Shown here in pieces: positions 32,691 through 36,125 of a stretch of 64,000 nt of DNA. Below the pieces are notes generated by a model that did not search any database, was not told the origin of the DNA, and was given only the letters and a program-made list of their open reading frames with translations. Both the position numbers and the translations under genes were made by a program. Positions within the stretch are counted from its first letter, which is position 1; each line of letters opens with the position of its first letter. Location of the stretch: the IMG/VR virus record IMGVR_UViG_3300031413_000001. One strand, written 5' to 3'. The stretch is from a virus. Taxonomy: Duplodnaviria; Heunggongvirae; Uroviricota; Caudoviricetes.

Positions 32691-32762
32691 GGACGATTGG
32701 CGCAGCGGTAGCGCGTTCCCTTGACATGGGAAAGGTCACAGGTTCAATCCCTGTATCGTCCA
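32691..32762 (+). tRNA. tRNA-Val(GAC)
   Basis: Cloverleaf. Confidence 0.9.
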
Positions 32763-32784
32763 CTGATCACTAAGTGATCGCCAT

Positions 32785-34429: not shown

Positions 34430-34485
34430 CCCAGTTGACAAATTGAACAAAGGTGTTAGTTGTGGCTTCCAATAGGAGGTCGTCA

Positions 34486-34944
34486 ATGAATCCCGAGTTT
34501 GATGTCAACATCATCCAGCCCAAGCACATCTCGCTTTTGCGGGAAGTTGCTGATGGCAGGAAGAATTGGCGCGATGGGATCGTTGCACTTTACCGGCGAG
34601 AGCTGGTTGAGTATGATGGCCTCCACGCGGTCAAGATAACGGACCGAGGACGGTTTGCTCTACGGGGCATCTTTCCTGGTGCGATCGTACAAGTCGCCGC
34701 CGCCCACAAGCATTCATTCCTCCATGGAGTGGTTGGTCTTGTGGAGTCCCTGGACGTTCACTTTGTGGACGCTGATGGGATTGACGAGTATGGTTACGTT
34801 ATCAAGCGAGCGCGAGCATCGGCCTCCGCCAGTGTTCGTCTCGCAGATCGACCCGGACAGTGGATCTTCTACAATCCGGAATCGTTGGTTGGCTTTCCCA
34901 AACTGAAGGCCGAGATAAACGAGTATTGGAGAAACGTATGCTAA
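34486..34944 (+). CDS. Hypothetical protein
   Basis: aggagg RBS. Confidence 0.7.
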   Translation: MNPEFDVNIIQPKHISLLREVADGRKNWRDGIVALYRRELVEYDGLHAVKITDRGRFALRGIFPGAIVQVAAAHKHSFLHGVVGLVESLDVHFVDADGIDEYGYVIKRARASASASVRLADRPGQWIFYNPESLVGFPKLKAEINEYWRNVC

Positions 34945-35550
34945 GGGGAACTCGAGTTCTCGTGGGGGCTGAAGCCCGCGCGATGATTCAGATGACCGAT
35001 CTCCTGAGGAGGTTGGTTCACTGAAGCTGGATTTGATGAAGTAATTCTGCCCGCACTGTGGGAACAACAGACCTTCATCGACAAGGCTGGACCGGAAATC
35101 GTCAATCAAATGTGGGCCTTCCAGGATAAGGGAGGTCGAGATGTTTGCTTGATCCCCGAGGCCACTGGTCTCATCCAAGAATTGTGGCGCGACAAGTGGA
35201 AGGGAATGGGGAAGCCCATGAAGATCTTCTACGTGCAACGCTGCTATAGATACGAACGGCCACAAGCCGGACGCTATCGGGAGTTCACGCAATTTGGTGT
35301 GGAGTATCTAGGCGGAAACGCCCAGGACGACCGCCAAGAGGTTGTTGAGCTACTGCGGCGCTGTATGGAAGCAACAGGTGTCAATTGGACGCTCGTTGAT
35401 GCTGTAAAGCGCGGTCTATCCTACTATGTTGAGGATGGCTTTGAAGCTGTCTGCGACCAACTAGGGGCACAGAAACAGGTAGCCGGAGGTGGTAGATACG
35501 CTGAAGGTATTGGTTGGGCCATTGGGCTTGACAGACTGCTTCTGGCCTAA
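34938..35550 (+). CDS. hisS: Minimal histidyl-tRNA synthetase-like catalytic core, split by a +1 frameshift near 35016-35024
   Basis: Motif 2 YRYERPQAGRYREFTQFG, RGLSYY, motif 3 GGGRY..GIGWAIGLDRL; frame-0 stop TGA at 35022. Confidence 0.8.
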
Positions 35551-36010: not shown

Positions 36011-36083
36011 GGTGACCGTGGTGTAGCGGTAACATTTCTGGCCTGTGAAGCCGGAGTCGCGGGTTCGAACCCCGTCGGTCACC
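36011..36083 (+). tRNA. tRNA-His(GTG)
   Basis: Encoded G-1:C73; ctgtgaa loop. Confidence 0.9.
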
Positions 36084-36125
36084 CCTTCTAATTGACAGCA
36101 CGGCAACGTGGTGTTAGTTTGATAA

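Follow-up and report, generated by a model that had tools for sequence, protein, structure and literature searches.

A putative programmed +1 frameshift at a histidine codon in a jumbo-phage gene for a minimal histidyl-tRNA synthetase

The window analysed here, a 64 kb stretch of the virus record IMGVR_UViG_3300031413_000001, lies on a jumbo-phage contig (L002, 416.7 kb) with 49 tRNA genes and contains a gene for a minimal histidyl-tRNA synthetase (mini-HisRS) which is distributed over two reading frames of the same strand. The coding sequence begins in a short frame-0 open reading frame (ORF0), of which codons 1-27 are assumed to contribute to the enzyme, and continues in the +1 frame, where a TGA at 35005-35007 is followed by an open frame from 35008 to the terminal TAA, and where the first ATG, GTG or TTG does not occur before 35110. 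On the basis of the frame-0 stop at 35022-35024 and the +1 stop at 35005-35007, the shift must therefore lie within 35008-35024, and the overlap of the frames is confined to five codons and the stop, AGG AGG TTG GTT CAC TGA. The original prediction for this locus had read frame 0 as AGG AGG UUG GUU CAC UGA with the synthetase continuing in +1, which was exact on re-reading of the sequence. The joined product comprises 203 amino acids with zero histidines, and its +1 part matched the Pfam family tRNA-synt_His (2.4e-19) and also tRNA-synt_2b. We consider it probable that the gene is functional and encodes a minimal HisRS of 203 residues, the synthesis of which would need a programmed +1 ribosomal frameshift; this judgement refers to the favoured explanation as a whole, including gating by His-tRNA, negative feedback and probable tRNA charging.

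Scans of viral, metagenome and genome collections yielded 51 distinct genes of the shifted type and 11 distinct homologs without the shift. The shifted genes originated from jumbo-phage contigs, metagenomes and some bacterial assemblies, with protein identities down to about 50%. Each of the 51 contained an in-frame (G/C)TT CA(T/C) at the sole place where skipping one base gives a full-length protein, and in the protein database all 85 shifted-type ORFs read F-I or F-T at the site (85/85), corresponding to the +1 translation of TTC AYN; homologs in the database number roughly 1,900 in total. A search for the same shift in homologs had been proposed as a check in the original prediction, with sequencing error or a pseudogene as the simpler alternative; the recurrence of the shift in 51 distinct homologous genes refutes that alternative.

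The place of the frame switch was mapped by comparing per-base entropy in 45 unique genes with the site at +23, counted in codons from the Gly of the RGTR motif. Variability followed the frame-0 third positions before the site and the +1 third positions from the codon AYN onwards, and the entropy over N-T-T-C-A-Y was 0.94, 0, 0, 0, 0 and 0.80 bit. In one relative (L008), a +1-frame TAG immediately 5′ of TTC leaves three candidate slip codons. Within the window alone, the motif RGGRGG-N3-STTCAY had a single match, at the mini-HisRS site, which is not significant (0.14 expected; one match in 14 of 100 shuffles), and the weight of the predicted shift signal comes from its conservation and not from the motif match in a single sequence.

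The cassette was found at five codon positions after the RGTR Gly (+14, +15, +19, +23 and +67), with the protein length kept each time, and in the unshifted homologs the Gly of RGTR and that of the G-F/Y motif are likewise 27 residues apart. At +67, the shifted gene L020 reads TGT CTT CAT CCC and its unshifted relative L022 reads TGT CTT ATT CCA, the shifted gene having one extra C inside CTT ATY. Because the motif V-C-L-I-P-E is conserved at this place, Leu would be inserted on CUU, the C skipped and Ile decoded next, with no His. By the same logic, the junction in the window most likely reads ...L-V-T-E-A-G-F and includes neither the frame-0 H nor the F encoded in +1; the +1 continuation FTEAGF... 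given in the original prediction was thus right in its frame, and its first residue is most likely absent from the protein. At the level of sequence comparison, the aligned genes demonstrate that a +1 shift is needed, where it lies and that its cassette is conserved.

Table 1. Coordinates of the mini-HisRS gene, its predicted frameshift signal and the associated tRNA genes. Positions refer to the window unless another contig or locus is named. SD, Shine-Dalgarno; RBS, ribosome-binding site.
Feature	Position	Strand	Remarks
RBS, GGAGA	34928..34932	+	5 nt 5′ of ATG 34938; read from the sequence
ORF0, N-terminus of HisRS (MLRGTR...LLRRLVH)	34938..35024	+	28 codons and TGA; read from the sequence, frame-0 third-position variability in 45 unique relatives
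SD-like element, AGGAGG	35007..35012	+	3 nt (TTG) 5′ of the slip codon; anti-SD duplex -13.0 kcal/mol
E-site codon (spacer), UUG	35013..35015	+	Presumed, by analogy with prfB
P-site slip codon GUU (Val27), predicted to re-pair on UUC	35016..35018	+	NTT third position 0 bit in 45 unique sequences
0-frame A-site codon CAC (His), proposed sensor	35019..35021	+	CAY in 51/51 shifted genes
0-frame stop, TGA	35022..35024	+	Terminates the 28-residue default product; not conserved in relatives
+1 part	35020..35550	+	176 codons and TAA 35548-35550; HisRS motifs 1, 2 and 3, histidine-binding motifs
tRNA-Val(GAC)	32691..32763	+	Candidate P-site tRNA; gene called by ARAGORN, role inferred
tRNA-His(GUG)	36011..36085	+	G-1 encoded (36011), C73; proposed substrate
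Site at +14	L021
Site at +15	L044, L054
Site at +19	L057
Site at +67	L020, L051
tRNA-His of relatives, first list	L006:2273-2348, L009:2296-2369, L010:3713-3785, L016:2396-2471, L026:2612-2685
tRNA-His of relatives, contrasted list	L009:3594-3669, L010:3555-3630, L026:2533-2607

In its spacing the site had been likened to that of prfB, and a Shine-Dalgarno (SD)-like element located 3 nt upstream was present here and in most of the 51 relatives, in the forms CGGAGG, AGGGGG, AGGAGG or CGGGGG. The anti-SD duplex energy of the window element (-13.0 kcal/mol) compares with a gene background of -2.4 kcal/mol; for the shifted family the median was -9.5 kcal/mol with a gene background of -2.1 kcal/mol, and unshifted homologs gave about zero at the same place. 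The element was found at the independently placed sites as well, and the third position of its CGG/AGG codon varied little (0.57 bit, 45 unique sequences). The spacer codon was mostly U-initial in the family (UGU, UUG, UAU). All GUU sites had a strong SD-like element, whereas those of the CUU sites ranged from strong down to none, a pattern which fits CUU as the more slippery codon (PMC5009743).

The slip codon was CUU in 36 genes and GUU in 15, with U at the third base and C as the next base in every one, and the proposed C after the P-site codon (NUU-C) accordingly held for all 51. The histidine codon proposed for the A site was likewise recovered, as CAU or CAC, in the entire set at five gene positions. 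The 0-frame codon after CAY varied (TGA, TAA, CGN, TGC, CCC, CTC, CAA, GGA), and therefore the His codon is the constant element and the stop is not part of the signal. In the unshifted homologs, codon 27 was free at its third position and V, R, I, T, A or M occurred as residue 28, which assigns the C-A-Y constraint to the site instead of the protein. The phage tRNA-Val(GAC) and tRNA-Leu(GAG) decode NUU through wobble pairing, G-U for GUU, and on UUC would form an additional G-C pair, the base at 35019 (C) being the one skipped in the proposed slip. A shift on CAY itself, for which CAY would occupy the P site and the stop the A site, was rejected, since relatives differ in the 0-frame codon that follows, re-pairing of CAY in +1 is poor, and such a shift would give no reason for the invariance of NUU. 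A downstream stimulatory RNA structure was also rejected: no conserved structure was found 3′ of the site, with a consensus energy of -0.19 kcal/mol and zero covarying pairs.

The only cultured phage with a close homolog is Sinorhizobium phage Phosso, in which frame 0 reads MLRGTR...RGCLH and the remainder lies in +1; its annotated "histidyl-tRNA synthetase" begins at a fortuitous +1 ATG. More generally, gene callers give truncated +1 ORFs only, 146-210 amino acids in length. In a quick maximum-likelihood tree rooted with archaeal HisRS, the mini-HisRS genes formed one clade (SH-aLRT 100). The +23 site occurred in the earliest branch of a large sub-clade, within which unshifted genes were nested at several places; the +67 pair was placed next to L014 and L022, both unshifted, the sister being the +23 gene L028, and a small sub-clade contained the +14, +15 and +19 sites. 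Many inner branches of the tree were weakly supported, and the count of five positions is independent of it.

Mini-HisRS genes were also observed in three assemblies of cultured bacteria, Thalassospira xianhensis MCCC 1A02616 contig1 (L106), Azospirillum lipoferum Sp59b (L112) and Pararhizobium sp. BT-229 (L111). The first two have a +1 site, that of L106 within a tRNA array, and the gene in L111 has a continuous frame and adjoins a tRNA-His called with anticodon ATG; these loci may be resident jumbo phages or islands, and may provide culturable material. One database protein (P0037) has MLRGTRMLMG fused in frame to a +1 "junk" translation before F-I, an indel variant with a misframed first helix which may be an error or a decayed copy. 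Upstream in the window, ATG 34938 overlaps the stop of the preceding ORF at 34453-34944 (ATGCTAA). This ORF of 163 amino acids, of unknown function and with a faint winged-helix match, terminates within the mini-HisRS start; close relatives lack it and have tRNA-Gln directly 5′ of mini-HisRS.

Regarding the identity of the protein, the best match of the family profile in the PDB was Thermus thermophilus HisRS (1.5e-34), the HisRS of T. thermophilus, S. aureus and E. coli ranging from 1e-34 to 1e-29, when HisZ, the HisRS paralog serving as regulatory subunit of ATP phosphoribosyltransferase, reached 6e-9 only. In NCBIfam, the corresponding values were 4.9e-40 for hisS and 4.4e-24 for hisZ. An AlphaFold2 (AF2) model of the +1 part had a pLDDT of 89.4 and a TM score of 0.86 to the catalytic domain of E. 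coli HisRS. Among 20 family members, the motif 2 sequence R-Y-E-R-P-Q-x-G-R-Y-R-E-F-x-Q, the motifs R-G-L-x-Y-Y and G-G-G-R-Y, and motif 3 were invariant or nearly so. The invariant motif 2 stretch R-Y-E-R-P-Q-x-G-R-Y-R aligns with the acceptor-end contact residues of Thermus HisRS, where Glu114, Arg115, Arg120 and Arg122 make contacts to A76, the acceptor stem and C74 in the complex with tRNA (PMC4357726).

Mini-HisRS ends directly after motif 3, lacks 11 residues of the motif 3 loop, and has nothing equivalent to Thermus residues of about 157-229 (insertion domain) and beyond about 318 (anticodon-binding domain); the original prediction was correct on the missing anticodon-binding domain. 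The comparisons establish the predicted protein as a HisRS catalytic core without the insertion and anticodon-binding domains. It shares with the bacterial enzymes (E. coli 1KMM, T. thermophilus 1ADJ and 4RDX) the core fold, motifs 1-3, RGLxYY, GGGRY and the acceptor-end contacts of motif 2, but comprises about 203 residues instead of about 420, is histidine-free, and is short of the two domains. HisZ is similarly HisRS-like without an anticodon-binding domain, and was rejected as identity on the basis of the much weaker matches. Unlike HisZ, which is without adenylation activity (PMC9437257), the mini-HisRS family retains the catalytic motifs, and its neighbour here, in loci surveyed for tRNA genes, is tRNA-His. 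A second reduced class II synthetase-like gene was observed in the same phage record outside the window (L185:636-1451, minus strand, equivalent to G002:C1:109334-109819); it encodes 271 amino acids in a continuous frame and is closest to glycine-tRNA ligase (6e-16, far under the cut-off).

A tRNA-His gene is located within a few hundred bases of mini-HisRS in most related loci, and the encoded G-1:C73 pair ascribed to the phage tRNA-His in the original prediction was seen at 36011-36085. Within 36011-36090, the 3′ tail of the window gene reads CCT, so that CCA is not fully encoded, when most relatives encode CCA. Several relatives have two kinds of tRNA-His side by side, one with G-1:C73 and one without G-1, having T at -1, G1-U72 and A73. 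Sinorhizobium, the host of Phosso, belongs to Rhizobiales. The type without G-1 and with A73 is used by Rhizobiales, Caulobacterales and Rhodobacterales, and the Caulobacter enzyme of this type failed to charge tRNA from E. coli (PMC3064791). The pairing suggests one tRNA-His for the host enzyme and another for the phage enzyme, and mini-HisRS together with the G-1:C73 tRNA-His may constitute a phage-borne pair working independently of the host enzyme. Charging of tRNA-His by mini-HisRS would be consistent with the circumstantial evidence of the adjacent G-1:C73 tRNA-His and the retained acceptor-end residues. Within tRNA arrays of related phages, ARAGORN additionally called tRNA-like genes with a two-base "anticodon" (six-base loop) at L005:1194-1266, L009:2206-2288 and L021:5385-5452.

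The joined proteins of the shifted genes contained 6 His in 10,656 residues, and 45 of the 51, including that of the window, had none; a second sample of the shifted type from the protein database contained 8 His in 15,416 residues. For unshifted homologs, the corresponding numbers were 14 in 2,408 and, in a second sample, 19 in 2,040. Other long ORFs of the window have 2.6% His, and a 203-residue protein without His would arise by chance with a probability of about 0.5%. The proposed sensor codon is essentially the sole His codon met by the ribosome on the mini-HisRS mRNA, and a His-free product is what would be expected of a protein made when His-tRNA is short.

According to the proposed mechanism, the ribosome would translate the 27 frame-0 codons until the P site is occupied by GUU (35016) and the A site by the His codon CAC (35019), with AGGAGG 3 nt upstream pairing with 16S rRNA at a too short spacing, as has been proposed for prfB. 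Upon rapid arrival of His-tRNA(His), the ribosome would read CAC, and the next codon UGA would terminate translation to give the 28-residue peptide. If His-tRNA(His) is scarce, the A site would stay empty and peptidyl-tRNA(Val) would slip from GUU to UUC, the C being skipped and ACU read, with the full enzyme as the product. The enzyme would then probably charge the phage G-1:C73 tRNA-His, by which the switch would close in negative feedback. The dependence on the level of His-tRNA, the efficiency of frameshifting and the tRNA-Val or tRNA-Leu that slips are parts of the scheme that we infer. We are inclined, with some reserve, to regard the locus as a ribosome-based sensor of one aminoacyl-tRNA, i.e. 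a sense-codon version of the prfB switch in which a single CAY would gate a histidine-free HisRS; included here are a module installable at five or more codons, the control of a phage-borne, host-independent HisRS/tRNA-His pair, and a transferable design.

A mini-HisRS pseudogene broken by a one-base insertion, or an assembly error, is the default reading of any single frameshifted ORF, and the truncated +1 ORFs of the gene callers agree with it. Against this stand the maintenance of the break in 51 distinct genes with identities down to about 50%, the purifying selection in frame 0 upstream and in +1 downstream, and the recurrence of the break at five positions with the same cassette each time. 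A check of the reads had been proposed in the original prediction; no indel was present over 34600-35600 in contigs of four runs, namely the likely source run, a DNA run independent of it (24 single-nucleotide polymorphisms, SNPs) and two RNA-library runs, the contigs of the latter covering the gene as no proof of transcription and with rare edited transcripts beyond their reach. The sole strain SNP in ORF0 (34979) was synonymous in frame 0, and of the downstream SNPs five out of six were synonymous in +1, the sixth changing K to Q. Both error, given four runs without an indel and the same break in many assemblies, and a pseudogene, given the frame-specific selection, were rejected, and the probability left to them is next to negligible. 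The frame might also be corrected without a ribosomal slip, by a four-base-reading tRNA, by transcriptional slippage or RNA editing, or by an internal start of the +1 part. These phages have large and odd tRNA sets, and many relatives have the SD-like element about 7 nt before a +1-frame AUC or AUU, a possible weak start. In the window, however, the +1 codon is ACU, which is no start, and none follows before 35110; internal starts at +67 would remove motif 1, and would account for neither the invariant NTT-C nor the conserved frame-0 N-terminus, and internal initiation was rejected. ARAGORN gave no four-base-anticodon tRNA in the window or in 41 loci, which is weak negative evidence, the sites share no homopolymer run, and the RNA-library contigs are identical to the DNA letters, although a rare edited form could escape contigs. 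Correction of the frame by any of these means is thus considered very improbable.

A programmed but constitutive +1 shift, setting a fixed low enzyme yield or a fixed ratio of peptide to enzyme, would fit all the evidence for the need of a shift equally well. CAY would then be kept for mechanical reasons, such as generally slow decoding by tRNA-His or a favourable +1 codon: some of the C-A-Y conservation could serve the re-pairing on UUC (C) or a fast +1 codon AUY/ACU (A-Y), which begins an Ile or Thr codon. This possibility draws further support from histidine content, as the whole mini-HisRS family is His-poor, unshifted members included, and the link between shift and lack of His was not significant with relatedness controlled (4 independent pairs, p 0.25-1; underpowered). 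Still other observations weigh against the sensor as proposed. Two of the 51 shifted genes (L015, L017) are without an SD-like element, and one sub-clade has CGGAGC only; re-pairing of tRNA-Val(GAC) from GUU to UUC involves a first-position mismatch, CUU being the better-known slip codon. The hisS (TIGR00442) score of the +1 part, 137.8 bits, is below the equivalog cut-off of 286.75, and the insertion domain, which clamps the acceptor stem in the Thermus complex (PMC4357726), is missing in mini-HisRS; because of these two features, charging of tRNA by mini-HisRS is unproven. On the other hand, against a constitutive shift stands the His codon in the A site of 51/51 genes at five positions, in a gene whose product handles histidine, when residue 28 varies freely in unshifted homologs. 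Moreover, a vacant A-site codon makes a +1 slip tRNA-sensitive, as in hungry-codon and Ty1 frameshifting (PMC5009743), and therefore some dependence on His-tRNA is hard to avoid. A purely constitutive shift is on these grounds judged unlikely, and gating by His-tRNA is preferred.

If sensing by the His codon is true, hungry-codon frameshifting, mainly known as a starvation error, doubles as a designed regulator; the cassette would be a compact 15-nt part for amino-acid-responsive switches, and giant phages would control a private translation module of mini-HisRS and their own tRNA-His inside their hosts. The module of SD-like element, 3 nt, NUU and CAY could represent a general, transferable design for amino-acid-specific translational control. 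For annotation, the consequence is that hundreds of mini-HisRS genes are now reported as N-terminally truncated ORFs. The presence of the device in the cultured phage Phosso makes direct testing possible.

Programmed +1 frameshifts under feedback are very few, comprising prfB, antizyme and a handful of others. The mini-HisRS device can be classed as a prfB-like or Ty1-like programmed +1 frameshift, and no aminoacyl-tRNA synthetase gene under a sense-codon +1 frameshift, i.e. gating of the matching synthetase by a sense codon, was found in full-text literature searches and a 2016 recoding review (PMC5009743). As in prfB (AGGGGG-UAU-CUU-UGA-C), a short ORF0 and a long +1 ORF make up one protein, the NUU slip codon in the P site (CUU in most relatives) is preceded by an SD-like element at 3 nt, and downstream structure is absent. 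In prfB, decoding of the A-site codon depends on the product of the gene itself, resulting in negative feedback (PMC5009743), as is predicted here. The A-site codon is in turn the sense codon CAY instead of the stop UGA, and the skipped base is C (UUC) instead of U: the prfB combination of CUU-U with UGA in the A site was not found, the window having GUU-C CAC and the relatives CUU-C or GUU-C with CAY. Unlike in prfB, the molecule sensed would be an aminoacyl-tRNA and not a release factor, and the mini-HisRS cassette arose at, or moved to, five positions in one gene family.

The frameshifts of Ty1 and ABP140 (CUU-AGG-C) and those at hungry codons in E. coli involve a +1 slip of peptidyl-tRNA(Leu) on CUU with a slow sense codon in the A site, at a rate governed by how much of the A-site tRNA is available (PMC5009743). 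The mini-HisRS sites have the anatomy of the Ty1 type, with NUU and its invariant third U, a sense codon in the A site and no conserved structure, slow decoding of CAY being assumed. In Ty1, however, the codon is slow due to a rare tRNA functionally unrelated to the gene product, and the hungry-codon shifts in E. coli are described as starvation errors and not as a conserved expression device, whereas the codon in mini-HisRS matches the amino acid of the enzyme and a bacterial SD-type stimulator is present.

Attenuation by the his operon leader peptide and T-box control of aminoacyl-tRNA synthetase genes sense by stalling of the ribosome at His codons or by binding of uncharged tRNA. Like the proposed device, they read the charging of a specific tRNA and raise the matching pathway. 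They differ in acting on transcription termination via alternative RNA structures, when in mini-HisRS the reading frame itself would be the read-out.

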